Source: an uncultured Sarcina sp.
Lineage (GTDB): Bacteria; Bacillota; Clostridia; Clostridiales; Clostridiaceae
NCBI GenBank assembly: GCA_963559995.1
Contig: CAUWNL010000001.1
Location: forward strand, 13,108-77,107
Direction: 5' to 3'
DNA: 64,000 nucleotides
How positions within the stretch are numbered: position 1 is the stretch's first letter; each line of letters starts with the position of its first letter. Below the pieces are notes generated by a model, which made no database searches, had not been told where the DNA came from, and was given only the letters and a program-made list of their open reading frames with translations. Positions 10,528-61,324 of the stretch are shown piece after piece. The translations under genes were made by a program, and so were the position numbers.

Positions 10528-12588
10528 TTACGCCATACCTAGCATTCTACAAAGTGGTGTTATTATAATATTTATTATCTTAATTCCTATAAATGGTGTT
10601 ATTACTCCACCTACTCCAAATACAAGAACATTTCTAATAAGTAACATTTCTGACTTCATTGGTTTATATTTAACACCTTTCATTGCTATTGGTATTAATA
10701 TTGGTATTATAATAGCATTAAATATTAAAGCTGATAAAATCGCTGATTGTGGTGAAGATAACCCCATTACATTTAAAACCTTCATTTGAGGTATTGCAAG
10801 TATAAATATAGCAGGAATTACTGCAAAGTATTTAGCAACGTCATTAGCTATACTAAACGTAGTTAAAGCACCTCTTGTTATTAAAAGTTGTTTACCTATC
10901 TCAACAACTTCTAGTATCTTAGTTGGGTCTGAATCCAAATCAACCATGTTAGCAGCTTCTTTAGCTGAAGTTGTTCCTGAATTCATTGCTATACCAACAT
11001 CTGCTTGAGCTAAGGCAGGGGCATCATTAGTACCATCACCTGTCATAGCAACTATTTTACCAAGTGCTTGTTCTTTTTTAATAACAGCTATTTTATCTTC
11101 TGGTTTACATTCAGCTACAAAGTCATCAACTCCAGCTTCTCTAGCTATTGTTTCAGCAGTTAATGGGTTATCTCCTGTACACATTACAGTCTTTATACCC
11201 ATTTCTCTAAGTCTTGCAAATCTTTCTACAAGACCTGGTTTAACAGTATCTTTTAAGTAAATTACACCATATATTTTATTTTCAACGCATACAGTTAATG
11301 GAGTTCCTCCAAGTTTTGATACGTGTTCTACTTTTTCATCTATATCTTTTGGAATTTCTCCACCTAAAGATTTAGCAAATTCTTTAACAGCACTACTTGC
11401 ACCTTTTCTTACTCTAGTACCGTCTTTTAAATCCATACCACTCATTTTTGTTTGAGCTTGGAATTCTATAAATTCAGCTTCTGGATAGTTATCTAAACTA
11501 TCTGTTATATTCATAGTAGCTGCAAGTTCAACAACTGATTTACCTTCTGGTGTTGTATCTAAAAGAGAAGTTAAAAGAGCTGCTTTTATTAAATCTTCTT
11601 TAGCTACACCTTCAACTGGTATAAAATCTGCTGCTAATCTGTTACCAAAAGTTATTGTTCCTGTTTTATCTAATATCATAGTATCAACATCACCACAAGC
11701 CTCAACCGCCTTACCAGACATTGCTATAATATTAAACTTAGTAACTCTATCCATACCTGCAATACCAATTGCTGATAAAAGACCACCAATTGTGGTTGGT
11801 ATAAGACAAACAAGAAGTGCTACCAAAGTAGCTATTGATATATTAACTCTTAAGTAAGCACTCATTGGATATAAAGTACTTACAACAACTAAGAATATTA
11901 TTGTTAATGATAAGAGTAATGTTCCAAGTGCAATTTCATTTGGTGTCTTCTTTCTTTCAGCACCTTCAACTAGTTTAATCATCTTGTCTAAGAAGGATTC
12001 ACCTGGAGTAACTGTTATTTCAACCTTTATCCAGTCAGAAACAACTTTTGTTCCTCCAGTTACTGATGCGAAATCTCCACCACACTCTTTAACAACTGGA
12101 GCAGATTCTCCTGTTATAGCAGATTCATCAACTGAGGCTATACCTTCTATAACCTCTCCATCATTTGGAATTAAATCTCCAGCTTCTATTAAAATTATAT
12201 CACCTTTTTTTAAATCATTAGCGCTAATTATAGTTACGTTTCCGTTGTCATCTAATAATTTAGCTTCTGTATTTTGTCTAGTTTGCTTAAGAGTACTAGC
12301 TTGAGCTTTACCTCTACCTTCAGCAATTGACTCTGCAAAGTTAGCAAAAAGTATTGTGATAAATAATATTATCCCGATTATAAAGTCGTATATTCTACTA
12401 TTTCCTGATCCCCCAAAAAGATTTGGGAAAGCAGATAATATAAAAACAAGTATACATCCTAACTCAACTAAGAACATTATTGGATTTTTCACCATATGCT
12501 TAGGATTTAATTTTTTAAATGAATCCTTAAAAGCATTATTTAGGATGTCTTTGCTTACAAATTTACCTTTTTCGCTTTTTTCGCTCAT
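10528..12588 (-). CDS. kdpB: K+-transporting P-type ATPase subunit B
   Basis: 686 aa. DKTGTIT phosphorylation motif and [17 protein letters not shown] hinge motif. Confidence 0.95.
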
Positions 12589-12610
12589 AAATCTTTATTC
12601 ACTCCTTATC

Positions 12611-14287
12611 CTAAAATTTAAGAAATTCAGTTATTGGTCCAAGACCTAATGCAGGAAGGAATGTTAAAGCACCTATAACTAAAATAATGCAGAATAACAT
12701 AACTCCAAAAATAGCATTATCAGTTTTAAATGTTCCTACAGTTTCTGGAACCTTCCTCTTATTAGCTAATGATAAACCAGCAGCTAGTAAAAGTAAAATA
12801 GGAGCATACCTTGCTATAAGCATAATAATTGCAGTTAGTATATTCCAGTATCCTGTGCCATTTGCAAATCCACCTAAAAGTGAACCATTGTTAGCACTAG
12901 CACTTGTAAATTCATATAGAACTTGGCTCATGCCATGGAAGCTAAGAGCAATTCCACTATGTAAGCCTATACCACTTATTAATGTAAATGCTGTTGAGAA
13001 TAAAATTAGTATAGGATGTATTAATATAGCTATGGCTATTAATTTTATTTCTCTTGCTTCAACCTTTTTACCTAAAAACTCTGGTGTTCTTCCAACCATA
13101 AGTCCACAGATAAATACAGTTAATAAAACATACATTATTACATTCATGAATCCTGAACCTATACCACCAAATATAGTATTAAGTGACATATTCCAAAGAG
13201 CCATAAATATTGTTATAGGATTTGCAGCATTTAATGCTGAATTTGTAGCACCTGTTGTAAATGCCGTACTTATTGTAGTAAATAACGATGTTCCAAAGTT
13301 ACCAAATCTTAAATCCTGTCCTGTTGAGCCACTAAATGCTTTAGATAAACCTAAGCTTTGAAGAGCATTATTTCCCAAAGAATTTCCATAGTACATAACA
13401 AAGAATGAAATTAAAACTAATACTAGTAACGCAATTATTATTACTACTGATTGTTTTTTATTCTTTATAGTTACACCAAAGCTAACAACAAATGAGCCTG
13501 GTATTACAGTCATTGCTAAGATTTCTATAAAGTTTGAAATAATATTTGGATTTGCAAATGGAGTTGCTGAATTTGCTGCAAAGAAACCGCCACCATTTGT
13601 TCCTAAGAACTTAATAGCTTCTAAAGCTGCTATAGGACCCATTGCAATGTTTTGGAATGTTCCTTCTATGGTTTTTACAGTTATCATGCCTTGAAGTGTT
13701 TCAGGTACTCCTGTAGCTATTAATATTATTGCTATTATAAATGCTCCTGGTATTAAAACCCTTGTTAAAGCTCTTGTAAAATCAACATAAAAGTTTCCAA
13801 GGCTTTTAGACTTTCCAGCAACAGTTCTTATAAATGCAAATCCTATTGCGCAACCAGTAGCTGCTGCTGCAAACATAAGAAATATTATAACTAGCATTTG
13901 GCTTAAATTAGAAATAGCACTTACCCCTGAATAATGTTGAAGATCTGTATTAGTTATAAAAGATACAGCTGTATTAAAAGACAAGCTTGTACCCATACCT
14001 TTTACGTGTTCTGAATTTAATAAAGGAATTAAACCTTGTATTTTTAAGATTATAAATCCTATTAAAAACATAATAAAGTTACTCATAAGCAATGCAATAG
14101 CATATTGCTTAAAGGTCATATCTTCTTTCGATATACCACATATCTTATAAATGCAGTTATCTATTTTACTAAAAAATTTGTCACCCTTATACTGCTTAAA
14201 ATTAATGATATTAGCTAAATACTTACCTATGATAGCTATAAGCACTATAAATATGACTAAAAACAAAATTAGATTTAGCATATTCAT
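12611..14287 (-). CDS. kdpA: K+-transporting ATPase subunit A
   Basis: 558 aa polytopic protein with NTDLQHYSG and GTNGGGF selectivity-filter-like motifs, directly upstream of kdpB. Confidence 0.9.
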   Translation of the reverse strand: MNMLNLILFLVIFIVLIAIIGKYLANIINFKQYKGDKFFSKIDNCIYKICGISKEDMTFKQYAIALLMSNFIMFLIGFIILKIQGLIPLLNSEHVKGMGTSLSFNTAVSFITNTDLQHYSGVSAISNLSQMLVIIFLMFAAAATGCAIGFAFIRTVAGKSKSLGNFYVDFTRALTRVLIPGAFIIAIILIATGVPETLQGMITVKTIEGTFQNIAMGPIAALEAIKFLGTNGGGFFAANSATPFANPNIISNFIEILAMTVIPGSFVVSFGVTIKNKKQSVVIIIALLVLVLISFFVMYYGNSLGNNALQSLGLSKAFSGSTGQDLRFGNFGTSLFTTISTAFTTGATNSALNAANPITIFMALWNMSLNTIFGGIGSGFMNVIMYVLLTVFICGLMVGRTPEFLGKKVEAREIKLIAIAILIHPILILFSTAFTLISGIGLHSGIALSFHGMSQVLYEFTSASANNGSLLGGFANGTGYWNILTAIIMLIARYAPILLLLAAGLSLANKRKVPETVGTFKTDNAIFGVMLFCIILVIGALTFLPALGLGPITEFLKF

Positions 14288-33289: not shown

Positions 33290-33877
33290 CTATTTTTTTA
33301 TTGAATAAATTATGTAAATATCATTTTCATCAACCATCTTATCAACAAAAAATGAATTAACAAGCATCCAACCAACCTCAGCTGTTTCTTTAAGGCCTAA
33401 TGATATGTCACTTACCTTTTTTTTGTTATTATGATGGTCGTTTAATTGATCTCTTCCCATATCGTGACAAATTAAAAATTTACCATTATCTCTTAACAAA
33501 CTATGTACATGAGCTATAAACTTATCTGGATCTAAAAAATGTGGAAATGCATTATATATAATAACATAATCAAATTTTCTATCTTTTATATTATGAACAT
33601 CATCACAAATAAACTCTATTCTTTCATCATCATATTTTTCTTTTGCTTTTTTTATCATATTTTCAGCTATATCAACTGCAACTATTGATTTAGGATTATA
33701 TTTAAGTAAAAATTGCTCCATAACTCCAGTTCCACAAGCAACATCTAAAATATCCAATCCCTCTTTCATTTCACCAACTTCTAAAATTCTCTTTATCTTT
33801 TCTTCTCTTGGAATTGCTCTTTCATCCCAGTTTTCTGCCCATGCATTAAAAACCTCTTTAATTCTTTCATTACTCAT
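33290..33877 (-). CDS. Class I SAM-dependent methyltransferase
   Basis: Motif I ILDVACGTG. The start is set at ATG 33877 (MSNERIKE), 6 nt after AGGTG. The ORF track's GTG at 33886 overlaps that RBS. Confidence 0.75.
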   Translation of the reverse strand: MSNERIKEVFNAWAENWDERAIPREEKIKRILEVGEMKEGLDILDVACGTGVMEQFLLKYNPKSIVAVDIAENMIKKAKEKYDDERIEFICDDVHNIKDRKFDYVIIYNAFPHFLDPDKFIAHVHSLLRDNGKFLICHDMGRDQLNDHHNNKKKVSDISLGLKETAEVGWMLVNSFFVDKMVDENDIYIIYSIKK

Positions 33878-34392
33878 TATATACACCTACTTTCTTAAGT
33901 ATTTTGATAACAAAAAAATTATTAATTCTAATACTATTTTAAATAGTTATCATTATTATTAGTATAACAAATGTATAGGCAAAATTCTCTATTATTTTAT
34001 TATTAGCTAAAACTTAATGATTATCATATGAAAATTGTAGAATAACCCATTTTTATACTATTGATTATAAAAATGTAATATTTTTTTTGATATTTTTAAT
34101 TTTTTTATAATTGATATTTATCCCTTTTAATAAATATTATTGAATAAATTTTAATGTTAATACAATCTTTTTTTATTTTACTAACTTTATTTATTCTATA
34201 ATATAAAATAACTGTATTTTAATTAAATTTCATGAAATTTATTATAATTTTAATCTATAATACCACTTAATAAGTTATTCCTTAACCTATTGCTTTTTTA
34301 TTATAATATATATAAAATAACTAATGGAAATAATACCAATTTTCCAATTTACTTTTATACTATTTTATACCAAAGATAAAGGAGTGGTTAAC

Positions 34393-34749
34393 TTGAAATA
34401 TCAATACAGATTTAAATTCTATGTTAGCGCCAGACATTATTCTAATATAAGTGGGACATCTACTATTTTACACCCACATACCTGGGAGCTAACTCTACTA
34501 GTATCTTCATCTAAGAATGAACTTATTGAGTTTAGTTACTTAGAAACCAAGATAGTTCAATATTTGAAAAATTTCGAACAAAAATCTCTTAATACTTTAG
34601 AAGCTTTTATTAATAAAAGCTGTACAACTGAAGATATAGCATATATATTCTTTGAGGATATATCTAACATAATCTTGAAAGATGATATTGTTTTAGATTG
34701 CCTAGAACTTAGTGAGAATCCAACTAGAACTTTTATTATAAAGAGGTAA
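34393..34749 (+). CDS. 6-pyruvoyl-tetrahydropterin-synthase/QueD-fold protein, exosortase-G-system-associated type
   Basis: 118 aa from TTG 34393 behind AAAGGAG. The ORF-track ATG at 34324 has no RBS. The motif LHPHTWEL resembles the PTPS/QueD His motif. It is the first gene of a tight three-gene cassette. Confidence 0.6.
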   Translation: MKYQYRFKFYVSARHYSNISGTSTILHPHTWELTLLVSSSKNELIEFSYLETKIVQYLKNFEQKSLNTLEAFINKSCTTEDIAYIFFEDISNIILKDDIVLDCLELSENPTRTFIIKR

Positions 34750-34762
34750 GGGTGAATACGTT

Positions 34763-35347
34763 ATGATTATTATTCCTTTATTTATAATCTCCATGATAGT
34801 TTGGATATTTCTAATTAAAATGTTTTACGATTTAAAAATAACAGCTTTTAGATTTTATACTGGTTCTATAGGCCTATTTTTTATAATATTATTTTTTTTC
34901 AGACCTTATTTAGAATCAGGCTTTAAATTTTTATTATTTTATTCATTATTATTTGTGAGTAAAATAACACATATTTTTTACATAAGTACTTTATCTAATG
35001 CTGTAGTTACTGTTAATAATTTAACATTTAACATAAATTTTAACCTTCAAGCATCAACATTAATAAGTATGATAGTATTTACATCATTGATATGTTTCTT
35101 TCCACTATTACACCTTAAAAGAAGACTTTATTTATTTTTTTTAGGAAATATATTAATATTTCTAATAAATATTTGCAGATCTTTTATTGTAATCCTACTA
35201 ATAAGGTTATTCTCTAGATATTCTCTAGTAATTGACTTTGACATTATAGGGAAATTAATATTTTTCTCATTAATCATAATGTTATATTACGTTATATTTA
35301 CTAAAGCACAGATCAAAAATCAAAAAGTAGGTGAATTACTATGTTAA
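34763..35347 (+). CDS. xrtG: XrtG-like (Gram-positive exosortase family) polytopic membrane protein
   Basis: 194 aa, about 6 TM helices. Candidate Cys/Arg pair NICRSF. The call rests mainly on size plus the conserved context of a PTPS-like gene upstream and a GT2 gene downstream. Confidence 0.5.
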   Translation: MIIIPLFIISMIVWIFLIKMFYDLKITAFRFYTGSIGLFFIILFFFRPYLESGFKFLLFYSLLFVSKITHIFYISTLSNAVVTVNNLTFNINFNLQASTLISMIVFTSLICFFPLLHLKRRLYLFFLGNILIFLINICRSFIVILLIRLFSRYSLVIDFDIIGKLIFFSLIIMLYYVIFTKAQIKNQKVGELLC

Positions 35348-36669
35348 ATATGTTGTATTTTTATTTAATATTTTGGGGAATATGGCTTATAATACCTATA
35401 TTAGTAGATGGAATTCCAGGATTTTTTATAGCTTTTAACTTGTTTAGTTCACATTTTAAAATAATTAAGAAGGAAAAGATATTAAAATCTTATCCAACAA
35501 TATCTATTATAATACCAGTTTACAATTCAGCAAGCACCCTAATGGCTTGTATAGAATCTGTTGTAAAACAAAAATATCCTAAAAATAAAATAGAGATATT
35601 TCTAATAGATAATGGTTCTTCTGATAATTCTTTTGAGGTATTTTGTAAGACATATGATATTTATCCTAACAGTCAAATGTGGTGGTTAACTTCTGGAAAT
35701 GGTAAAGTAAATGCACTCAATAAGGGTTTATATTTATCTAAAGGAGATTATTTAATTAATATAGATTCTGATGGGATATTACATGAGGATGCTATCTTTA
35801 ATATGATTTATGACTTTGAACAAGACCATAGTATATCTGCTATGACAGGAGCAATACTGATAAATAAGGATACTATGACTAAGCGTAAAAACTTCCTTAA
35901 GCTTATTCAAAAGTGTGAGTTATATGAATATTTAGAAGCCTTTCTTATTGGTAGAGCTTATGAATCTAAAAGAAATAATATGTTTACTTTAGCCGGTGCT
36001 TTTTCAGGTTTTAGAAGATCTGCAATAGTTAAAACTCATCTCTACAACTCTGAAACTCTTGGAGAAGATACTGCTATGACTTTTGAAATTAAAACATCTT
36101 TAAATGGTAAAGTTAAACTATGCCCTACTGCTTATTTCTTTACAGATTCTATAGAAGGAGTGGATAAACTTTATCTACAAAGACAAAGATGGCAATGTGG
36201 TGAACTTGAAGTAGCTGCATTATTTAAAAGACAAAACTTAAGTAAAAAATTAAGAAGAATGATTACCGTTACTTTGATTAAAGATCATACATTTTTATTT
36301 TCTAGAATGATTTGGTTTTTTGGAAACATATATCTAGTTGCAAGTTCATACCCTTTGTATATAATACTATTATCAAACTTGTTACTCTATATTATGTATT
36401 CACTTATATCTCTTTGTAACTTTATAGTTATAAATAAATATTTAAAAAACTTAAAAGATTACAAATCTTACTACAAGAGAAATTTCTTTATAGTATTTTT
36501 AATGCCTGCATATAGAATTTTTACATTTTTTATAAGAGCTCTCGGCGCAATAAATGCTATGGATGAAGAATCAAATTGGAATAGAAAAACTTTTAAAACT
36601 GAAAAATCTGAAATAGTCCAGTACATAAAATCAATATTTTCTAGCAAGAAGAAAAAATCAAGAGGCTAA
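35341..36669 (+). CDS. Processive family-2 glycosyltransferase (cellulose/PNAG/chitin-synthase-like), XrtG-associated type
   Basis: 442 aa. N-terminal TM helices, then PVYNS, DNGSSD, IDSDG, GEDTAMT and QRQRW (Q-x-x-RW), followed by C-terminal TM helices. Overlaps the previous gene by 7 nt. Confidence 0.8.
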   Translation: MLNMLYFYLIFWGIWLIIPILVDGIPGFFIAFNLFSSHFKIIKKEKILKSYPTISIIIPVYNSASTLMACIESVVKQKYPKNKIEIFLIDNGSSDNSFEVFCKTYDIYPNSQMWWLTSGNGKVNALNKGLYLSKGDYLINIDSDGILHEDAIFNMIYDFEQDHSISAMTGAILINKDTMTKRKNFLKLIQKCELYEYLEAFLIGRAYESKRNNMFTLAGAFSGFRRSAIVKTHLYNSETLGEDTAMTFEIKTSLNGKVKLCPTAYFFTDSIEGVDKLYLQRQRWQCGELEVAALFKRQNLSKKLRRMITVTLIKDHTFLFSRMIWFFGNIYLVASSYPLYIILLSNLLLYIMYSLISLCNFIVINKYLKNLKDYKSYYKRNFFIVFLMPAYRIFTFFIRALGAINAMDEESNWNRKTFKTEKSEIVQYIKSIFSSKKKKSRG

Positions 36670-36682
36670 AGTTTATTACTAT

Positions 36683-36724
36683 AAAAATATAAGATATAAG
36701 TGTATACTTATATCTTATATTTTT
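36683..36724. terminator. Bidirectional terminator between the GT2 gene and luxS
   Basis: Perfect 19-bp stem AAAAATATAAGATATAAGT / ACTTATATCTTATATTTTT. Confidence 0.85.
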
Positions 36725-36727
36725 ATA

Positions 36728-37177
36728 CTATCTATATATTTTATTGCTTATTCCTTTTTCTAAAATTTCTTTAATATATTCTTTTGCTGCAAATAAAGAA
36801 TGATCTCTATAATTTCCACACTCCTTTGCAGTAGTTGCTGGAATAGTATCTTGCTCTAATATCTTATTAAGAGCATAATTTAAAGCATCAATTACATTGT
36901 CAACCTGAACATCTCCCCATGCTACCATATAAAATCCAGTTCTACATCCCATAGGTGATATATCTATTATTCCATCCATTTTTTCTCTCATAAATGTAGC
37001 TAAGAAATGTTCTATTGTGTGTACAGCTCCAGTTGGCATTTCTTTTTCATTGGGCTGTAAAAACCTTAAATCAAACTTAGTTATTTTTATACCTTTCCTC
37101 TCATCTTGTCCAGCTTTTCTAACATAAGGTGCTTTAACTTTTGTATGGTCTAGCTCAAAACTTTCTACTTTAATCAT
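36728..37177 (-). CDS. luxS: S-ribosylhomocysteine lyase
   Basis: 149 aa. HTIEHFLATFMR (HxxEH metal site) and GCRTGFY. Confidence 0.9.
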   Translation of the reverse strand: MIKVESFELDHTKVKAPYVRKAGQDERKGIKITKFDLRFLQPNEKEMPTGAVHTIEHFLATFMREKMDGIIDISPMGCRTGFYMVAWGDVQVDNVIDALNYALNKILEQDTIPATTAKECGNYRDHSLFAAKEYIKEILEKGISNKIYR

Positions 37178-40354: not shown

Positions 40355-40441
40355 CATATTATATTCTAATTCTAACTTTAATAAAAAACTTGATAATTTT
40401 AATATTATATGTAATAATTATTTTTGCAAAAGTTAATAACT

Positions 40442-40610
40442 AAGATAGAGGTGCAAAATTTAAGAGTACTATTATGGAGGTAAGCTCAGTGAAGTAATAG
40501 AAAAGGAAATTTTGCCGAAGTTAATGGTGGAAGCTTTAAAGCTATTAGCTGGTTTTGTATAGAATATGTACACGACTGTCACAAATTTTTGTGGAGAGCT
40601 ATTATTCAAT
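40442..40610 (+). promoter_or_regulatory. Lysine riboswitch (L-box) aptamer
   Basis: AAGATAGAGGTGCAAAATTTAAGAGTA...GGAGG...GTGAAG...GAAAAGG...TTGCCGAAG...GCTGG...ACTGTCAC...GTGGAGAGCTAT matches the conserved L-box blocks of the B. subtilis lysC leader. Confidence 0.85.
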
Positions 40611-40723: not shown

Positions 40724-42166
40724 ATGAGCGAAAAAAATGGAGATTTAAAAAGATCTCTAAAAGCAAGACATCTTAATATGATTGCTCTAGGTGGAGCAAT
40801 TGGAACTGGTATTTTCCTTGCTATGGGAGATACAATTAAGCAGGTTGGGCCTGGTGGCGCTTTCTTAGCTTATGCACTAATTGGAGTTATGGTCTATTTC
40901 ATCATGACAAGTCTTGGAGAACTTGCAACCTTTATTCCTATATCAGGTTCCTTTGGTACATATGCAACAAAATTTATTGACCCTGCCCTTGGCTTTGCTC
41001 TTGGATGGAACTATTGGTATAACTGGGCTATTACTATAGCAACAGAAATGGTAGCGGGGTCACTTGTTATGCATTTCTGGTTTCCAGAAGTAAAACCTAT
41101 TTATTGGAGTATATTATTTTTAGCAATCATTGTACTGCTTAATGTCTTATCGGCTAGGGCCTATGGAGAAGCAGAATTTTGGTTCGCTTTAGTTAAAGTT
41201 GTTACTGTTGTAATCTTCTTAGTAATAGGTGTTATAACTATTTTAGGAATATTTGATGGAAACTTTATAGGGCTTAAAAACTTTACAGCAGATGGCGGGC
41301 CATTCTTAGGTAATGGATTTTCATTCTTCTCAGTATTCTTAGTTGCAGGATTTGCATTCCAAGGAACTGAACTTGTTGGTGTTGCAGCTGGTGAAAGTGA
41401 TAACCCTGGAAAGACAATACCAAAGGCTATAAATCAAGTCTTTTGGAGAATTTTAATATTCTACTTAGGAACAATTCTTGTAATAGGTGCTATAATCCCT
41501 GCAGCTCAAGCTGGAGTTAGCACAAGTGTATTTACACTTGTATTTGAAAAAGCTGGTTTAGCAGCAGCTGCTGCTGTTATGAATGCAGTTATACTAACGG
41601 CTGTTTTATCTGCTGGTAACTCAGGAATGTATGCATCTAGTAGAATGCTTTATGCTATGGCTAAAGAAGGAATGGCTCCTAAAGCTTTTGGAAAAGTTAC
41701 TAAAAAAGGTGTTCCTCTAAATGCTATAATCTTAACTACTGTTGTTGCATCACTTTGTTTCTTAACAGGAGTATTTGCAGAAAACACAGTATATATTTGG
41801 CTTGTAGATGCCTCTGGTCTTGCTGGATTTATAGCATGGCTTGGAATATCAATTTGTCACTATAGATTTAGAAAAGCTTACGTTGCTCAAGGATATGATG
41901 TGAAAAAGTTAAAATATAGAGCTAAATTATTCCCAATAGGCCCAATAATAGCTCTTTCCATGTGTGGACTTATAGTGGTCTTTCAAGGTTTTGGAGATTC
42001 AACATGGCAAACTCTTGTAGCTGCTTATATAGGAATACCACTATTTTTAGCATTTTATATTGGTTATAAAGTAAAATATAAAACTAAAATACTAAAATTA
42101 CATGAAGTTGATTTAGCATTTTCTGAAACAAATCCAGATATATCAGCATATAAAAAAGATGCTTAA
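40724..42166 (+). CDS. lysP: APC-family amino-acid permease, lysine-specific (LysP-like)
   Basis: 480 aa. KRSLKARHLNMIALGGAIGTGIFLA is the AAT-family signature. Sits directly behind a lysine riboswitch. Confidence 0.75.
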   Translation: MSEKNGDLKRSLKARHLNMIALGGAIGTGIFLAMGDTIKQVGPGGAFLAYALIGVMVYFIMTSLGELATFIPISGSFGTYATKFIDPALGFALGWNYWYNWAITIATEMVAGSLVMHFWFPEVKPIYWSILFLAIIVLLNVLSARAYGEAEFWFALVKVVTVVIFLVIGVITILGIFDGNFIGLKNFTADGGPFLGNGFSFFSVFLVAGFAFQGTELVGVAAGESDNPGKTIPKAINQVFWRILIFYLGTILVIGAIIPAAQAGVSTSVFTLVFEKAGLAAAAAVMNAVILTAVLSAGNSGMYASSRMLYAMAKEGMAPKAFGKVTKKGVPLNAIILTTVVASLCFLTGVFAENTVYIWLVDASGLAGFIAWLGISICHYRFRKAYVAQGYDVKKLKYRAKLFPIGPIIALSMCGLIVVFQGFGDSTWQTLVAAYIGIPLFLAFYIGYKVKYKTKILKLHEVDLAFSETNPDISAYKKDA

Positions 42167-46601: not shown

Positions 46602-48371
46602 CTATACGAAAATACTTTGGCCTTCTGCAGAATTACTATTTACAACTGTTCCATTTTGTAAAACATAATAATCTAAACCATCATAAGATCCACATCCATG
46701 AACCTCTTCTCTATGTTTAATAAATGATTCATAATCACCACGAATTAAATAGAACTTAACTCCATTATTTCCTGTAAATAATGCTCCTGAAGGTCCATCT
46801 GTATCAGACATATAACTCCAAACTATTTTTCCATCTTTACCTGTAGTACCTATTTCTTTTTCTACTAGTGCCATAGCTTGCTCTACATTCTGTACTACTA
46901 TCTTAGAATTACTATTACTAGTCCCTGTTGAAGAATTTGTACTACCTGTTGATTTTACTGAGCTACTTGAATTTGAGCTCTCTGGCTTATTAAAAGATAA
47001 ATATCTAGCTGGTACATAGCCAATTTCATTGTTACCATATTCTATTTTATAAAATCCATCTTCTGCACCTAAAACAGTTACTTTAGTACCTGATTGTAAT
47101 GCTGTTTCAAGTGTTGTATCCCCAGTTGGATCTTGATAAATGCCAGCTGATTCATTACCTGTTGGTTGATATATATATGCTGTTCCTGTTTTGCTACTTG
47201 TTGTATTTTTAGTTATTGGCTCATTACAACTTATATTTTTTGTTGATCCAATAACTCCTGTAGTAGATGAATTACTTAATGTATATCCATAAAAACCCAA
47301 ACCATTAGATGTAAGTAATTTACCATTATATATTATAAATGAGTAATTATTGCTTGTATTACTTGGATCCTCAATTACTAATACTTTTACACTATTTGTG
47401 CCATTAACTCCAAATATTTGAGGACAAAACTCTGAATTACCTAAGAAATATGAGGAACTCTCACTTACTACTTTATATACTGGGTTTTTAATCACTTGAT
47501 TACCGTAAATAAATTCTGACTTATTTAAGAAGATTGTTTCTGGGAATGAACTTGAACCATCTCCAATTCCATCCTCTATAGCTGCTACAGGATTTTTATT
47601 TATAGTCCAACTTCCAAAATAAGGTGAATACAGTGATGAACTTTTTGATGATGTAACTTTAGTTGTTGAATTACTAGATTTACTATTGTTAGAACTTGTT
47701 GCTTTAACCACTTTTGAAGTGTTTTGTGAGCTTGTCTTTGACGAATTATTTACTATAGTAGAATTTGCATTTGGTAAAACTATATATTCTTCATATATAT
47801 ATCCTGTTGTTCCGTTAATCTCTACCTTATACCAATCTCCTTGTTTTTCAAGTAATGTTACTTCACTATTATTTTTTAATTTTGCTAGTATTGCTGAATT
47901 CATTGTTGCTTCTTCCCTTAAGTTTACCCTAGTTGAAACATTTGTTATGTATGCTGTACCACTTAATGAGGTTAAACTATATCCAACTCCACTTACTATC
48001 TTTTGCATATTTGATGATGCAATATATCCTGTTACACCAGTCTCCTGTACTGTTACATTATAATATCCATTACTATAACTATTTATTGTTAACATCTCTC
48101 CAACTGATATGTAACTTTCTATATTAGAAGCACTTGATGTTGTATAAAGAACTAAATTGTCGTTTCCATTTATAACACATGCCTTATTTCCACTATTATT
48201 TATTGTTCTCGCTAACATAGTTTTATTTACTGTTAAATTGTTACTTGATAAATTTCCCCCACCAGCTATCATCATTCCACCAGCACCTATTATTGCTACT
48301 GTTAGAAATGATACCAATACTTTATTCTTTATAGAGCCTTCAATTATTGAAATTACCTTATTTCTTCTCAT
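46602..48371 (-). CDS. Membrane-anchored SH3b-domain surface protein, paralog A
   Basis: 589 aa. TM anchor, SH3b-like units (YYNVTVQETGVTGYIASSNMQKI; GDWYKVEINGTTGYIYEEYI; DGFYKIEYGNNEIGYVPARYL), Ser-rich linkers and a unique C-terminal domain. Confidence 0.65.
   Translation of the reverse strand: MRRNKVISIIEGSIKNKVLVSFLTVAIIGAGGMMIAGGGNLSSNNLTVNKTMLARTINNSGNKACVINGNDNLVLYTTSSASNIESYISVGEMLTINSYSNGYYNVTVQETGVTGYIASSNMQKIVSGVGYSLTSLSGTAYITNVSTRVNLREEATMNSAILAKLKNNSEVTLLEKQGDWYKVEINGTTGYIYEEYIVLPNANSTIVNNSSKTSSQNTSKVVKATSSNNSKSSNSTTKVTSSKSSSLYSPYFGSWTINKNPVAAIEDGIGDGSSSFPETIFLNKSEFIYGNQVIKNPVYKVVSESSSYFLGNSEFCPQIFGVNGTNSVKVLVIEDPSNTSNNYSFIIYNGKLLTSNGLGFYGYTLSNSSTTGVIGSTKNISCNEPITKNTTSSKTGTAYIYQPTGNESAGIYQDPTGDTTLETALQSGTKVTVLGAEDGFYKIEYGNNEIGYVPARYLSFNKPESSNSSSSVKSTGSTNSSTGTSNSNSKIVVQNVEQAMALVEKEIGTTGKDGKIVWSYMSDTDGPSGALFTGNNGVKFYLIRGDYESFIKHREEVHGCGSYDGLDYYVLQNGTVVNSNSAEGQSIFV
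47237..48371 (-). repeat. Dispersed direct repeat, copy 1 (5' two-thirds of SH3b paralog A)
   Basis: Colinear with 54861-56040. The core, about 47774-48221 versus 55443-55890, is recognisably similar at the nucleotide level (for example ...CCATTACTATAACT.TTTATTGTTAACAT.TCTCC...). Confidence 0.8.
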
Positions 48372-54285: not shown

Positions 54286-56040
54286 CTATAAATTCATTTG
54301 AAATGATAACCAAGCTGGAAATTCTAAGTTTAAGGAGTATACCTCTTTATTTTTGCAAGCTTCATTAAATGTCTTTGTATTGGCTAATTGTCCATCTGTA
54401 CTAATCACTCCATTATATACACCAAAATCATTAGAATTTTCACACATTTGTTGTAATGTTGATATTGCAAAAGAATAATAGAATTGTCCATCAGTAAAAT
54501 ATCCAGGATAAACTGTTTCCCCTTGTGTTGCTGGGAAATTAGTATTATATGTTACATTTATAAGAAGAGCATCTTCTCCGTATTTCTTCATTAATGCTTC
54601 CTTTTGTGCTGTTGTTCCATGTTCAACTATTTCCTGCTGAGCTGAATTTAATACTATATATCCATTATTTTTAACTAATCCTTTTATTTGATTATAAACC
54701 TCTTTTCTAAGAGTATTAGAATTTATTCCAAGCTTATCTGCATATTTACTTAATGTATAATAACATTGTCCACTTGCCACATTTATTGTACTTAAATTTT
54801 CTGGTAATTTTTCATTTGATATCTTTGTTTCCTTTATTACAGGATTATAAACTGATACCTCTCCTGTTGACCCATGAATACTTGCAGTTGAAGAATTAGT
54901 AAGACTATATTCATAGAAACATACTCCATCAACTATATCTAATTTACCATTATGAATTAGGAATATATAACTATCAGAACTATATAAGGTATCATTACTT
55001 GAAGCTGAAACTACTAATACTTGAACATCTTCCCCATTTCCAAATAAAGTTTCACATGAACCATTATTAGTAAAGTATGATGAATTAATTGTTTCTACTT
55101 TATAATATGGATTATTTATTACCTTATTTCCAAAAACAAATTTTGATTCACTTAAGAAAATTGTTTCAGGTAATTTACTTGGATTTGCACCACCAACTCC
55201 ATATATTTGTGCTACAGGATTTGTATTTACTGTCCAACTTCCAAAGTAAGGTGAATATTCTGATTTAGTTGTTGAACTTCCTGTACTTGATGTTTGTCCA
55301 TTTGTGCTATTTGTTAATTTTCTAGTTGTTCCAGTAGCACTTGAACTATTATTTGATGATGTAGCTTTAGTTGATGAGTTACCTGTGTTTGAGGTTGTTG
55401 CCCTTGAACTTGATGATGAATTGTTTGTTGTATTTGAATTTGCTATTGCTATGTACTCTCCATAAATATATCCTGTTGTTCCATTAGCCTCTACTTTATA
55501 CCAATCTCCTTGTTTTCCAAGTAGAGTTACTGATGTATCATTTTTAAGCTTTGCAAGTGTCTCTGAATTCATTGTTGCGTTTTCCCTTAAATTAACCACA
55601 GTTGAAACATTAGTTACATAGGCTGTTCCACTTAATGAAGTTAAATTATCCCCAACTCCACTTACTATCTTTTGCATATCAGCTGATGCAATATATCCTG
55701 TTGCTCCTGTTTCTTGAACAGTAACATTATAATATCCATTACTATAACTGTTTATTGTTAACATTTCTCCTACAGATATATATCCTGCTATATTAGAATT
55801 ATTTGCTGATGTATAAAGAACTAAATTATCATTTCCATTTATAACACAAGCCTTGTTTCCACTATTATTTATTGTTCCCGCTAACACTGTTTTATTAATC
55901 CCAATAGTGTTATTTTGAAAATTACTATGACTTGATAAAAATACACCACCAGCTCCTATTAAGGAAACTGTTAAAATTCCAACTAACATTTTGTTTCTTA
56001 CTGAATACTCTAAAATTGATACTATCTTATTTCTTTTCAT
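54286..56040 (-). CDS. Membrane-anchored SH3b-domain surface protein, paralog B
   Basis: 584 aa. The first 390 aa or so are colinear with paralog A (TM anchor, 2 SH3b units, Ser-rich linker, YSPYFGSWT... module). The C-terminal 190 aa or so are unrelated. Confidence 0.65.
   Translation of the reverse strand: MKRNKIVSILEYSVRNKMLVGILTVSLIGAGGVFLSSHSNFQNNTIGINKTVLAGTINNSGNKACVINGNDNLVLYTSANNSNIAGYISVGEMLTINSYSNGYYNVTVQETGATGYIASADMQKIVSGVGDNLTSLSGTAYVTNVSTVVNLRENATMNSETLAKLKNDTSVTLLGKQGDWYKVEANGTTGYIYGEYIAIANSNTTNNSSSSSRATTSNTGNSSTKATSSNNSSSATGTTRKLTNSTNGQTSSTGSSTTKSEYSPYFGSWTVNTNPVAQIYGVGGANPSKLPETIFLSESKFVFGNKVINNPYYKVETINSSYFTNNGSCETLFGNGEDVQVLVVSASSNDTLYSSDSYIFLIHNGKLDIVDGVCFYEYSLTNSSTASIHGSTGEVSVYNPVIKETKISNEKLPENLSTINVASGQCYYTLSKYADKLGINSNTLRKEVYNQIKGLVKNNGYIVLNSAQQEIVEHGTTAQKEALMKKYGEDALLINVTYNTNFPATQGETVYPGYFTDGQFYYSFAISTLQQMCENSNDFGVYNGVISTDGQLANTKTFNEACKNKEVYSLNLEFPAWLSFQMNL
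54861..56040 (-). repeat. Dispersed direct repeat, copy 2 (5' two-thirds of SH3b paralog B)
   Basis: See 47237-48371. Same orientation, about 7.7 kb apart. Confidence 0.8.
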
Positions 56041-56424: not shown

Positions 56425-58656
56425 ATGGAACAATATTGGAATGAATTTAAAAAAGGTTCTTGGACAAAAGAAATAGATGTTAGAAACTTTATTCAAACAA
56501 ACTACACTCCTTATGAGGGTGATAGCAGTTTCCTAGCTAAAGCTACTGAGGATACTAAAAAACTTTCTGATGAGGTTGCTAATCTTTTTAAAGCTGAAAT
56601 TGATAACGGTGGTGTTTTAGACGTTGATACAAAAACAATTTCAGGAATAGATGCTTATAATGCTGGTTATATAGATAAAAACTTAGAAAAAATAGTAGGT
56701 CTTCAAACAGATGCCCCACTAAAAAGAGCTGTTATGCCTTATGGTGGTATAAGAATGGCTGAAAATGCTGCAAAAGCTTATGATTTTGAAGTTGACCCTA
56801 AAATTTCTGAAGTATTTAGTAAATATAGAAAAACTCATAATCAAGGTGTTTTTGATGCCTATACTGATGAAATGAAACTTGCTAGAAAATCTGGTATAGT
56901 TACAGGTCTTCCTGATGCTTATGGAAGAGGCAGAATTATAGGTGATTATAGACGTGTTGCCCTTTATGGTGTTGATAGATTAATTGAAGATAAATTAGAA
57001 CAAAAAAAGAGCTTAGAAGTTTCAACTATAGATGAAGATGTTATAAGACTTAGAGAAGAAATCTCTAATCAAATAGTAGCTTTAAAACAGCTTAAAAACT
57101 TAGGCTTATCTTATGGATTTGACATATCTAAACCTGCTAAAAATGCTAAAGAAGCTGTTCAATGGTTATACTTTGGATTTTTAGGTGCTATAAAAGACCA
57201 AAATGGTGCTGCAATGTCTCTTGGTAGAACTTCTACTTTCTTAGATATATTCATTGAAAGAGATTTAAAAAATGGAACATTAACTGAGGCTGAGGCTCAA
57301 GAACTTATGGACCATTTTGTTATGAAATTAAGACTTGTTAAGTTCTTAAGAACTCCAGAATACAATGATTTATTCTCAGGAGACCCAACTTGGGTAACAG
57401 AATCAATTGGCGGTATTGGCTTAGATGGCAGACCTTTAGTTACTAAAAACTCTTTTAGAATACTAAACACTTTATACACTTTAGGACCATCACCAGAACC
57501 TAATTTAACTGTATTATGGGCAACTAATCTTCCTAAAGGGTTTAAAGATTTTTGTTCTCAAGTTTCAATTGATACAAGTTCTGTTCAATATGAAAATGAT
57601 GACTTAATGAAGCCTTACTGGGGAGATGATTATGCTATAGCTTGCTGTGTTTCTGCTATGAGAGTTGGTAAACAAATGCAATTCTTTGGTGCTAGAGTTA
57701 ACCTAGCTAAAACTCTTTTATACACTATAAATGGTGGAAAAGATGAAAAGTCAGGAGTTCAAGTAGGTCCTAAACTAGAACCTATAACAAGTGAATATCT
57801 AAACTATAATGAAGTTATAGAAAAGTTTGATGTTATGACAGATTGGCTTGCAAAGCTTTATGTTGATACATTAAATGTAATTCACTATATGCATGACAAA
57901 TACTCTTATGAAGCACTACAAATGGCTCTTCACGATAGAGATGTATTTAGAACAATGGCCTGTGGAATAGCTGGTCTTTCAGTTTGTGCTGATTCTTTAT
58001 CTGCAATAAAATATGCAAAAGTTAAACCAATAAGAAATGAAGAAGGAATCGCTGTTGATTTTGAAGTTGAAGGAGAATATCCAAAGTACGGAAATGATGA
58101 TGATAGAGCTGATGATATAGCAGTATTTTTAGTTGAAAATATGATGAAAAAGATAAGAAAGAATAAAACTTATAGAAATTCTTATCATACTCAATCAGTT
58201 TTAACTATAACTTCAAATGTTGTTTATGGAAAGAAAACAGGAACAACTCCAGACGGAAGAAAAGCTGGCGAACCATTTGCACCAGGAGCAAACCCAATGC
58301 ATGGAAGAGATAATAGTGGAAGTCTTGCAAGTTTAAACTCAGTTGCTAAACTTCCTTATGAATACTCTCAAGATGGTATATCAAATACTTTCTCAATAAT
58401 TCCAGATGCTTTAGGAAAATCCTCTGAAGATAGAATTACTAACCTTAGTTCATTAATGGATGGATACTTTAGACAAGGAGCTCATCACTTAAATGTTAAT
58501 GTATTTAATAGAGAAACTCTTTTAGATGCTATGGACCATCCAGAAAACTATCCACAATTAACTATAAGAGTTTCAGGATATGCTGTTAACTTTATAAAAT
58601 TAACTAGAGAACAACAATTAGATGTTATAAACAGAACATTCCACAGTAAGATGTAG
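56425..58656 (+). CDS. pflB: Pyruvate formate-lyase (glycyl radical enzyme)
   Basis: 743 aa. Active-site IACCVSAM and glycyl-radical motif RVSGYAVNF near the C-terminus. Confidence 0.95.
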
Positions 58657-58982: not shown

Positions 58983-61295
58983 CTATAATCCTGATTCTTT
59001 AAACTTTTTGCTCATTGATTCTGTTACATGATGGAATGGCTTCTTTAATAATGAAAAAACTAAAAATATTATTAGAAAACATACTAAGGCTAAAGCGTCA
59101 TTCCTAACATCACTCCAAACAACTCCTGCAATTCCTTGTCTAAATCCATCTATAGCATAAGTAAATGGCCATATTGGTTGTAAAATTTGAAATATTTTTG
59201 GATTTGTTTGTATTGGATATATTCCTCCTGAACCTGCAATTTGAAACACCATTATAAGAACACACATAGCTTTTCCTATATTTCCAAAAAGTGAAACCAG
59301 CGTAAATATTATAATAGTAAATGTTATTGAACTTAAAAATGCAAATCCTAATGTAACTAATACATTAGACGGCTCAATTCCTAGTACAAATTTATCTCCT
59401 AATGTAACTATTGTTGCTTGTATAAGAGATAAAAATATAAATAATAGCATTTTCCCGAAATGTTGTTCAATTAATCTTACCTTTTTGCCTTTCTCTAATT
59501 CCTCTTCACACTCAACTGTTAAAAGTGATGTTAGAAGAAGTGCTCCAACCCAAATAGCAAGAACTGTATAAAATGGTGTAAGTCCCATGCCAAACGTATC
59601 TGAATTATATACATCTTCTTGTTTGACATTTATTGGTGATGATAAAAAACTTGATATATCACCAGTATTCCTTTGAAGAAGACTTATAGCATTATTTAAT
59701 GTATCATTATTTAAAATGCTCAACTTATCATTTAAAGAACTTAAACTTCCTGAAAAACTAGAAAGTTTAGAATTAACCTCATTAGCAGTGTTTAATACCT
59801 CTCCACTGACTTCTATTCCCGTATCAGATAATTCTTTAATAGCAGGTACAATTTCATAAGAACTACTGATAATAGAATCAGCACTATCTATTTTATTATT
59901 TAAATTACTTCCTATATTATTTATATCTGGAATCACATTATTTGAAAAATTACTTGATATATTTCCTAGTGTAACTGATGCGTTATTTAATATAGTTAAA
60001 ACATTATTTAATGCCGTATCTACATTCCTCAAATCAATAGTTGTTCCAGATTCATTTGAATTACTACCTTCATTTGTTAGTCCATCTGGAATCGTAGTTA
60101 CACTACTAAGAGTTCCATTAGCTAAAGATTCATTTTTCTCAGCACTTATATCATTACTTGTTTTATTATTAGTTATAACATTTGGTATAGCATTTACTTT
60201 ATCCTTTAAAGAGTTTAATGACGATATTGCACTATTTATAGTTGAACTTAGCTTATTTAATGATTCTATTTGTGCAGTTACTTTGCTACTTGAAGCTATA
60301 TTATTTATTATATTTAATGTCTTAATAGCCTTCTTTATATAACTATTTGCATTATCTAAAGAGCTACTCATCTTATCTATAAGAGCTAATGCAGTAGCCT
60401 TATTTCCATTAACGTTATAATCAATAGCTTTTAACTCATTTATAAAAGATGTTGTCTCTGATATAGCATTTTGAATATTACTTATATTATTTTCAACATT
60501 TTGGCTTAAACTACTTAAAGTGCTAGTAGTAGAGTTTACTAATGTTCTACTAGAATTTGCTATATTTTGCAAACTATTTAACCCACTTGTAATTGATGTA
60601 GTATCACTTTTAACAAGGTTTAAATAATCAGAAAAATTTTTAGCATCAGTTCCTACATTCTTCATATAATTTTCTATGTTATCTATTGAAGTACTGGCTG
60701 TTAACATATCATCTTTAAATTGAATAAGACCAGCTTCGTTTTCTTTAAGCTTTTTACCTATTCCATTTACAGTACTTCCTGCAGCATCTATTACAGCAGC
60801 TATCATATTCCCCTTAATTTCTTTCGTAAGTTTTGTTGTAGCTACATCAGTAATCTTTGTAGCAATAGCATTAGCCTTTTCATTTACAACATATATTATA
60901 TCCGGTTTTTCTGCCCCAAGATTTTGTATATTAGTTATAAGTGATGAAAAATTATCTGGTATTTCTATCATAGCATAATATTTACCCGTTTTTACACCTT
61001 CTTCACCTTGCTGTTCTGTTACAAACTGCCAATCTATATCCTTATTATTTTTAAGTTCATCTATTATTTTATCACCTATATTTATCTCCTTACCATTTAG
61101 AACAGCTCCTTGATCTTCATTTACAACTGCAACTGGTAAATTCCCCGTATTTGCATAAGGATCCCAACATGCCTTTAAATTTATCCATGCATAAAGGGAT
61201 GGTATTATACAGATACCAATAATTATTATAAGTGCTGCTTTATTTTTAGATATATTTTTTAAGTCTCTAAAAAATATTTTAAAAATATTTTTCAT
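58983..61295 (-). CDS. YhgE/Pip-domain membrane protein (phage-infection-protein family), paralog 2
   Basis: 770 aa. N-terminal TM helix plus PSLYAWINLKACWDPY, a roughly 500-aa Asn/Ser-rich helical ectodomain, and a C-terminal 5-TM ABC-2-like domain (GGIYPIQ...PFTYAIDGFR). Confidence 0.8.
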   Translation of the reverse strand: MKNIFKIFFRDLKNISKNKAALIIIIGICIIPSLYAWINLKACWDPYANTGNLPVAVVNEDQGAVLNGKEINIGDKIIDELKNNKDIDWQFVTEQQGEEGVKTGKYYAMIEIPDNFSSLITNIQNLGAEKPDIIYVVNEKANAIATKITDVATTKLTKEIKGNMIAAVIDAAGSTVNGIGKKLKENEAGLIQFKDDMLTASTSIDNIENYMKNVGTDAKNFSDYLNLVKSDTTSITSGLNSLQNIANSSRTLVNSTTSTLSSLSQNVENNISNIQNAISETTSFINELKAIDYNVNGNKATALALIDKMSSSLDNANSYIKKAIKTLNIINNIASSSKVTAQIESLNKLSSTINSAISSLNSLKDKVNAIPNVITNNKTSNDISAEKNESLANGTLSSVTTIPDGLTNEGSNSNESGTTIDLRNVDTALNNVLTILNNASVTLGNISSNFSNNVIPDINNIGSNLNNKIDSADSIISSSYEIVPAIKELSDTGIEVSGEVLNTANEVNSKLSSFSGSLSSLNDKLSILNNDTLNNAISLLQRNTGDISSFLSSPINVKQEDVYNSDTFGMGLTPFYTVLAIWVGALLLTSLLTVECEEELEKGKKVRLIEQHFGKMLLFIFLSLIQATIVTLGDKFVLGIEPSNVLVTLGFAFLSSITFTIIIFTLVSLFGNIGKAMCVLIMVFQIAGSGGIYPIQTNPKIFQILQPIWPFTYAIDGFRQGIAGVVWSDVRNDALALVCFLIIFLVFSLLKKPFHHVTESMSKKFKESGL

Positions 61296-61324
61296 AATGC
61301 CCTCCTTCCTAAAACTAAACCTTT

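Follow-up and report, generated by a model that had tools for sequence, protein, structure and literature searches.

Positions 34393-36669 of the 64-kb stretch analysed here (hereafter the window), which comes from an uncultured Sarcina sp., carry a cassette that on the evidence of its sequence is a three-gene, reduced member of the Gram-positive/Firmicute exosortase G (XrtG) system. We hold with moderate confidence that it is a derivative of the Firmicute XrtG exopolysaccharide/protein-sorting system that would have been cut down to an invariant core. Its XrtG protein is predicted to be a pseudoenzyme, catalytically dead. Systems of this kind have already been defined bioinformatically; what is new is an exosortase that is predicted to be dead and has no client in sight, yet is conserved. 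The cassette consists of the following genes:

34393..34749, + strand: gene 1, PTPS-related (T-fold) protein, 118 aa, TTG start
34763..35347, + strand: gene 2, XrtG-family polytopic membrane protein, 194 aa, predicted to be catalytically dead
35341..36669, + strand: gene 3, TIGR03111 family-2 glycosyltransferase (GT2), 442 aa, predicted processive membrane-embedded synthase-translocase

Family assignment and gene structure

The three genes are co-directional and tightly packed, as had been reported in a preliminary description of this DNA; open reading frame (ORF) analysis reproduced both the gap of 13 nt between genes 1 and 2 and the overlap of 7 nt between genes 2 and 3. The GT2 start lies within the end of xrtG, so gene 2 has the adjacency to a TIGR03111 gene by which XrtG is recognized. 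All of the motifs quoted earlier were present: LHPHTWEL at residues 26-33 of gene 1, and IDNGS (89), IDSDG (141), GEDTA (241), and QRQRW (280) in gene 3. The proposed family assignment was borne out by hidden Markov models (HMMs) at the curated NCBIfam cut-offs. Gene 1 scored 98.5 bits with TIGR03112 (cut-off 69.35), gene 2 scored 109.4 bits with TIGR03110 (cut-off 102.75, a narrow pass), and gene 3 scored 540.9 bits with TIGR03111 (cut-off 363.95). Gene 2 also carried the TIGR04178 signature (29.8 bits, cut-off 23). Pfam assigned gene 1 to PTPS and gene 3 to GT2 families, and gave no match for gene 2. Throughout the window and the syntenic loci L007 and L008 of relatives, the XrtG, PTPS, and GT2 HMMs each matched only the cassette genes.

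The TTG start of gene 1 at 34393 sits 8 nt after AAAGGAG, and both the TTG and the ribosome-binding site are kept among relatives. A longer gene 1 of 141 aa beginning at an upstream ATG (34324) was rejected because that ATG is not conserved in the relatives.

Active site of XrtG

Canonical XrtG proteins carry the motifs Y/F-E-C-S-G, N-x-x-R, x-H-T/M/S, and S/A/G-R; their equivalents in the window XrtG are Q-A-S-T, N-I-C-R, D-F-D, and G-K. The family tetrad Cys/Arg/His/Arg is represented by Ala97/Arg139/Phe159/Lys164, and the conserved active site is thus not preserved. Among about 85 comparison loci, 80 XrtG ORFs had the tetrad C-R-H-R. Full-length deviants were found in the window clade (A-[R/K]-F-K), in L014 (D-R-Y-K), and in L033 (C-R-N-R); the few others were ORFs cut by contig ends or the frameshifted ORF of L017. 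An HMMER search of 1.84 billion cluster representatives yielded 120 clusters at E <= 1e-3, of which 80 had C-R-H-R and about 20 were full-length without the Cys and/or the His. A database of 5.8 billion sequences listed 120 homologues. All 12 with 75-100% identity to the window XrtG had A-[R/K]-F-K and no PF09721 match, and the other 108 had C-R-H-R.

Conserved Cys173, Arg214, and Arg253 of the archaeosortase ArtA were reported to be critical for activity (PMC9263693). Since the nucleophile is lost in the window XrtG and the equivalent Cys of ArtA is reported to be essential, sortase chemistry is predicted to be lost. The preliminary description had spoken of an exosortase-like protein with no visible client; with the conserved Cys and His gone, the protein is probably not an active enzyme that lacks a substrate. 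Passing the TIGR03110 cut-off, proposed there as a test, does not reveal this: the equally degenerate protein of L014 passes at 122.4 bits, so the change is invisible to the HMM. This has a consequence for annotation, as HMMs label presumably dead members "exosortase family protein XrtG". The Cys or the His position is altered in roughly one of every six clusters of the family. A new catalytic set in the degenerate proteins, e.g., Asp158/Asp160, was also considered and rejected, these residues being unconserved in L014 or P0130.

In the AlphaFold (AF2) model of the window XrtG (predicted local distance difference test score, pLDDT, 84.3; predicted template modelling score, pTM, 0.79), the helices form a bundle, and a single beta-hairpin (79-92) immediately precedes the helix that begins where the Cys used to be. 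Neither PDB sequence search nor Foldseek (best E-value 0.96) found a solved relative of XrtG.

Canonical XrtG loci and the components missing from the window

A canonical XrtG locus has five parts, namely the PTPS-like protein, XrtG, the GT2, a GT-C membrane glycosyltransferase (PF10131 or TIGR03766), and a secreted Firmicu-CTERM client (TIGR04145). Five loci of this type are listed below, with additional genes in brackets; the last two follow RefSeq annotation.

L009, C. acetobutylicum: (GtrA), PTPS, PF10131 membrane protein of ~820 aa, XrtG, GT2, (small GT2), secreted protein of 223 aa
L010, B. thuringiensis: PTPS, PF10131 protein of ~800 aa, XrtG, GT2, secreted protein of 240 aa
L097, metagenome: PTPS, PF10131 protein of 819 aa, XrtG, GT2, protein of 245 aa
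L011, Lactococcus plasmid: GGDEF, EAL, Firmicu-CTERM protein, XrtG, TIGR03111 glycosyltransferase, PTPS-like protein, TIGR03766 glycosyltransferase
L013, E. eligens: Firmicu-CTERM protein, XrtG, GT2, hypothetical protein, PTPS-like protein, PF10131 protein

The nearest canonical XrtG to that of the window was the L097 protein (40% identity). The short secreted clients are mutually homologous and consist of a signal peptide, a DGxFxDW domain, and a C-terminal transmembrane (TM) helix with a basic tail. With TIGR04145 (cut-off 50), the Lactococcus client scored 154.5 bits, and the clostridial clients scored 35-39 bits, below the cut-off but significant. For L. plantarum, a study lists an XrtG system with the same parts, including the Firmicu-CTERM protein, as up-regulated in self-aggregating strains (PMC12854382, 2026).

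It had been stated earlier that no polymer, sorting signal, protein substrate, or phenotype was published for this family, and the statement holds in part. A sorting signal and candidate substrates have been defined, by TIGR04145, by the RefSeq clients beside xrtG in Lactococcus and E. eligens, and in the L. plantarum study. For the Gram-positive XrtG branch, the literature searched contained no published polymer, enzymatic activity, biochemical data, or gene-knockout phenotype, and the L. plantarum transcript up-regulation was the sole functional observation found there.

With GtrA and a polyprenyl-phosphate-sugar-synthase-like GT2 present as well in the C. acetobutylicum locus, the GT-C protein may serve to decorate either the polymer or the client on the outside of the cell. 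In the Lactococcus lactis conjugative plasmid pBV60 (L011; NZ_CP110851.1, 3956-5641), the complete XrtG system stands right after diguanylate cyclase and EAL genes; this suggests that in lactic acid bacteria the system is controlled by cyclic di-GMP (c-di-GMP) and can move horizontally. Elsewhere in the family, XrtG forms the C-terminal domain of proteins of 350-822 aa (P0141, P0146, P0153, P0158, P0177, P0199, P0201, P0202, and P0211), whose N-terminal part is possibly a client or a GT-C protein.

Custom HMMs were built from the clients and the GT-C proteins of the canonical loci. Within the window, L007, and L008, the client HMM found no Firmicu-CTERM client (best E 3.3), and the GT-C HMM found no GT-C glycosyltransferase (best E 0.06). 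GT-C is present in L009, L010, L011, L013, L097, and most metagenome loci. The earlier view that the fourth conserved neighbour is absent and that the cassette may be a minimal version thus agrees with our result. The scan for proteins with a C-terminal TM helix and a basic tail that had been proposed at the same time, carried out on the window, returned just polytopic membrane proteins and a spurious ORF and offered no plausible client. We strongly predict from these gene contents that the window lineage has lost both the secreted Firmicu-CTERM client and the GT-C glycosyltransferase.

Several points weigh against this reading. Catalytic death is predicted from family conservation and from the mutants of ArtA, which is only distantly homologous, and the first Arg of the tetrad (Arg139) is retained in the window XrtG. 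The search covered 64 kb of the genome, and genes for a client or a GT-C protein may be located in the remainder. The sensitivity of the client HMM is low: 28 loci with an intact C-R-H-R tetrad were also client-negative, many of them with truncated contigs or divergent clients. The tie between the missing client and the dead XrtG is therefore suggestive and statistically unclean. The retained Arg139 and the 64-kb scope of the search can also be taken in favour of a fully functional XrtG sorting system, with client and GT-C encoded outside the window and cleavage of a C-terminal signal perhaps by another nucleophile, such as Ser98. Such a system would fit the passing scores with TIGR03110 and TIGR04178, the retained Ser of the C-S-G motif, and the family clusters that carry Ser for Cys and keep the His (SRHR, SRHK). 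We nevertheless consider it quite unlikely: the Cys equivalent is Ala and the equivalents of His and the second Arg are replaced too, the client gene lies within the operon in canonical loci, and the sister lineages L014 (Asp) and L098 (Asp/Asn/Cys) are substituted differently, with no alternative catalytic set conserved.

Conservation of the cassette among relatives

The exact GT2 protein was found in 27 blocks of a public assembly collection, with the same cassette and neighbours at all six of the places shown. By GT2 identity, the nearest named genomes were Sarcina ventriculi NCTC12966 (89%) and a metagenome-assembled genome (MAG) labelled C. perfringens (90%). A query of a word-indexed protein database with gene 1 returned close relatives only. 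XrtG is intact at 194 aa in the window, L007, L008, L016, and the distant L014, which is a separate lineage with another genomic neighbourhood (57% identity in the GT2, 48% in XrtG) and the same three-gene architecture as the window. Pairwise Nei-Gojobori comparison among the window, L007, L008, and L016 gave the following values:

XrtG: dN/dS 0.09-0.15, dS 0.76-0.94
GT2: dN/dS 0.08-0.16, dS 0.58-0.78
PTPS-like: dN/dS 0.05-0.18, dS 0.47-1.27

All three cassette genes are strongly predicted to be under purifying selection. The dN/dS of the altered XrtG matches that of the synthase, which argues that XrtG is not decaying.

These data bear on another explanation, that the cassette, or at least xrtG, is a decaying remnant without function, a pseudogene in the making. 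It would account for the loss of two of the five canonical components together with the catalytic residues and for the marginal TIGR03110 score. One more observation speaks on its side and against our reading: in L017 (metagenome contig OIYS01000006.1, 5400-6004, near-identical and S. ventriculi-like), xrtG is split by a 1-nt deletion in a poly-A run (A8 to A7). This split could be an assembly error, since it amounts to one base in a homopolymer of assembled metagenome reads, or it could reflect slippage in the run that turns the gene off. With intact ORFs, dN/dS near 0.1 at dS near 0.8 in three genes, the recurrence of the exact GT2 protein and its cassette, and invariant catalytic motifs in the GT2, we find decay very unlikely.

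Predicted GT2 synthase and its probable product

Residues N91, D142xD144, E242-D243, and Q280xxR283-W284 of gene 3 were invariant across 55 homologues; position 90 was D or N. The AF2 model (pLDDT 88.5, pTM 0.88) begins with one long helix, followed by a GT-A domain and, at the C-terminus, a bundle of helices. Its Foldseek matches in the PDB, at E 1e-16 to 1e-12, were the hyaluronan synthase XlHAS1 (8smp; TMq 0.67, E 1e-16), CvHAS, Chs1, and BcsA. The earlier proposal of a processive membrane-embedded GT2 is supported by the intact motifs and by the resemblance of the model to hyaluronan, chitin, and cellulose synthases, and on motifs and model together we strongly predict that gene 3 is an intact synthase of this type.

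Beyond its own family, gene 3 matched the HMMs of PgaC/IcaA (132 bits), NodC (67 bits), and CelA (24.9 bits), in each case far below the cut-off of the model. It is thus assigned neither to the poly-N-acetylglucosamine (PNAG) synthases PgaC/IcaA (TIGR03937, cut-off 422.3 bits) nor to BcsA/CelA (TIGR03030, cut-off 699.1 bits), and Pfam detected no PilZ domain. The order of affinities (PgaC/IcaA, then NodC, then CelA) favours a glycan of the beta-linked hexosamine type as the product over cellulose or another glucan.

The nearest species to the source organism includes Sarcina ventriculi, a gastric bacterium that forms packets and in which a cell-surface glycan is of some interest. One may therefore ask whether the GT2 makes the cellulose or mixed-linkage beta-glucan that cements the packets of Sarcina (Clostridium) ventriculi, with the altered XrtG and the PTPS-like protein as accessory subunits. 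The closeness of the S. ventriculi NCTC12966 protein, a cellulose matrix reported for Sarcina ventriculi (PMC7710045), the culturing of the species alongside other Clostridia in a study of mixed-linkage glucan (PMC10374906), and the fold match to BcsA are in line with this idea. We regard it as unlikely, given the large excess of the PgaC/IcaA score over the CelA score and the absence of a PilZ domain in gene 3: the published clostridial candidates for cellulose and mixed-linkage glucan, CcsA and RiGT2, are BcsA-like GT2s with PilZ, the type of enzyme to which others have ascribed the classical cellulose or mixed-linkage glucan of Sarcina (PMC7710045, PMC10374906). Moreover, the same GT2 family is widespread in Firmicutes that form no packets.

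PTPS-like protein

Gene 1 has no hydrophobic segment and is predicted to be cytoplasmic. Its Pfam PTPS score is 49.3 bits; with the QueD model TIGR03367, it reached 26.1 bits against a cut-off of 89.25 bits and is thus not assigned to QueD. In the family alignment, H15, H29, W31, E32, E108, P110, and R112 were invariant, and H27 was present in 90% of the sequences. The family profile matched solved PTPS/QueD chains (1y13, 6e-7; 2dj6, 1e-6; 2g64, 5e-6; 4ntk, 7e-3) with the HxH and S-E-x-P-T motifs in register, so that H15, H27, and H29 of gene 1 align with the PTPS/QueD His residues. We take this His triad to be the zinc ligands of PTPS/QueD, and the Cys and Asp-His to be its catalytic residues. 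Retention of these residues had been named as a point to check, and the outcome is divided. Like PTPS/QueD, gene 1 has the Pfam PTPS domain, the His triad, and the conserved C-terminal Glu (E108); it differs in having neither the catalytic Cys nor the Asp-His dyad. The whole TIGR03112 family has no Cys before the HxH and has variable residues before L-N where PTPS has D-H-x-L-N, and gene 1 itself is Cys-free.

The PTPS-like domain occurs in three forms: free-standing, as in the window; with a C-terminal TM tail anchor (L012, 4952-5614; L099, 3-410); and fused N-terminally to a PF10131 GT-C protein of ~800 aa. The fusions, of ~1020-1066 aa, were found in six metagenome loci (L025, 1638-4709; L029, 1158-4355; L057, 579-3653; L089, 195-3287; L090, 1238-4342; and L093, 1697-4750). 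Together with the tail anchors, they point to a position of the domain where the membrane machinery faces the cytoplasm. That the domain outlasted GT-C ties it to the XrtG-GT2 core. Our guess, held with low confidence, is that the protein has a regulatory or substrate-handling role.

Proposed function and history of reduction

The reduced XrtG core could work as follows. Gene 3 would polymerize sugar from a nucleotide-sugar in the cytoplasm and pass the chain across the membrane by a channel that it forms itself. Gene 2 would no longer cleave or transfer any protein and would persist as a putative non-catalytic membrane partner of the synthase, in a role comparable to that of the small membrane partners PgaD or IcaD. 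Gene 1 may be a cytoplasmic T-fold subunit that binds metal and ligand, attaches to the membrane complex, and there tunes or aids synthesis, having no PTPS/QueD chemistry; this is the weakest step of the proposal.

In a neighbour-joining tree of the GT2 proteins, the window clade and L014 were sister to L015, and that group was sister to the five-gene Clostridium/Bacillus type. L015, a Sarcina sp. MAG, has the order PTPS-XrtG(CRHR)-GT2-client and no GT-C. This placement points to stepwise reduction, for which the simplest history, judged from the tree, is that the GT-C gene was lost first and the client later together with the catalytic residues, XrtG being retained.

In gene order, XrtG and the GT2 are closely paired. 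The xrtG stop overlaps the GT2 start also in L009 and L010, and almost all comparison loci have xrtG and the GT2 gene side by side. Other degenerate lineages likewise keep the altered XrtG directly upstream of the GT2, with a PTPS-like gene in front in L098, L099, and L101 and without it in L102. In L100 (Logan ERR3499255, 1-9451), a degenerate XrtG (G-R-D-R) and a GT2 stand inside a Wzx/Wzy-type cluster with Wzz, a ParA/CbiA-family ATPase of the kind paired with Wzz, a flippase, Bac_transf, and GT1, and the PTPS-like gene is missing. We tentatively propose, with somewhat less than even confidence, that XrtG also acts without enzymatic activity, as a membrane subunit that the TIGR03111 synthase cannot do without, and that this role kept it under strong selection after sortase chemistry and client had gone, both here and in several further lineages.

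If this is true, the canonical exosortase sits on the synthase, and Firmicu-CTERM sorting is physically coupled to glycan extrusion, perhaps with the client being attached to the glycan. The three-gene Sarcina-type cassette would then be a natural minimal system for reconstituting the polymer. The locus separates parts that appear dispensable (client and GT-C) from those that appear indispensable (PTPS-like protein, XrtG, and GT2), XrtG being kept even where its predicted catalytic residues are gone. Exosortase systems as a whole occur widely and are linked to exopolysaccharide loci, and their mechanism is poorly understood.

Flanking regions and neighbouring genes

Two further features border the cassette:

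33887..34392, + strand: upstream intergenic region, AT-rich, presumed to carry the promoter, between gene 1 and the divergent methyltransferase gene
36680..36727, no strand: perfect 22-bp inverted repeat, probable bidirectional terminator, between the convergent GT2 and luxS genes

Both had been noted before and were confirmed. The upstream region has about 12-24% G+C and contains promoter-like hexamers at 34232-34261. It is poorly conserved among relatives except for TAAAATA, a probable -10 element about 70 nt before the start, and the ribosome-binding site. A c-di-GMP or other riboswitch in these ~500 bp was rejected because Rfam scans were empty there (nothing at E up to 5 in a permissive scan of 33850-34450) and the region is poorly conserved. 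The downstream hairpin folds as RNA with -22.4 kcal/mol (z = -6.55; none of 200 shuffles was as stable); it was overlooked by a simple terminator scan because it consists of A/U only.

The cassette is flanked by a S-adenosylmethionine (SAM)-methyltransferase gene (33290-33886, - strand) and by luxS (36728-37177, - strand). This arrangement is kept in L001-L008 and L016, and not in L014, so the cassette appears, from its conserved flanks, to be a stable chromosomal insert in the window clade. No GGDEF, EAL, or PilZ genes were present among the large neighbouring ORFs checked; in this respect, the window differs from the Lactococcus plasmid, whose operon stands behind GGDEF and EAL genes.

The sole Rfam match in the window at gathering thresholds was a lysine riboswitch (RF00168, 115.5 bits) at 40438-40609 (+ strand), upstream of an amino-acid permease gene (40724-42166). 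Two paralogues of ~585 aa with SH3_3/SH3_4 domains, probably cell-wall-binding, are encoded at 46602-48371 and 54286-56040 (both - strand); in L014, an SH3_3 protein adjoins the three-gene cassette. Housekeeping neighbours include KdpA and a P-type ATPase (KdpB-like) at 10528-14287 (- strand) and a pyruvate formate-lyase-like glycyl radical enzyme at 56425-58656 (+ strand). Two large ABC-2-type membrane proteins lie in tandem at 58983-63475 (- strand).

Comparison with known systems

The PgaC and IcaA poly-beta-1,6-GlcNAc synthases require the partner subunits PgaD and IcaD. The window cassette resembles them in combining a GT2 that has flanking TM helices and the D, DxD, ED, and QxxRW motifs with a small membrane partner that is not a glycosyltransferase. 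Outside its family, gene 3 matches PgaC/IcaA best; yet the score lies so far below the cut-off that gene 3 is not an orthologue. PgaD and IcaD are unrelated to the exosortase-fold partner of the window, and the cassette has neither a deacetylase (PgaB/IcaB) nor a porin. Hyaluronan synthase, chitin synthase, and BcsA are alike in overall predicted fold, with sequence identity of only 14-18%, and BcsA has a PilZ domain and a BcsB-like partner, which the window system lacks. PssC of Listeria is another Firmicute GT2, about 30% identical to IcaA, and makes a cell-bound aggregation polysaccharide under c-di-GMP control (PMC4125290). The Pss system (pssA-E) uses the BcsB-like PssD and the GGDEF receptor PssE, and the Pss literature searched mentions no exosortase or PTPS component.

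ArtA and XrtA/EpsH belong to the same superfamily as the window XrtG, as its TIGR04178 score indicates. Where ArtA needs Cys173, Arg214, and Arg253 (PMC9263693), the window protein has Ala at the Cys position and Lys at the last Arg position, and no PEP-CTERM, PGF-CTERM, or Firmicu-CTERM client was found in the window. The closest known counterpart is the canonical XrtG/Firmicu-CTERM system. The window differs from it by having neither GT-C nor client and by Ala/Phe/Lys in place of Cys/His/Arg, and shares with it homologous PTPS-like, XrtG, and GT2 proteins, the order PTPS...XrtG-GT2, and the overlap of xrtG with the GT2 gene.

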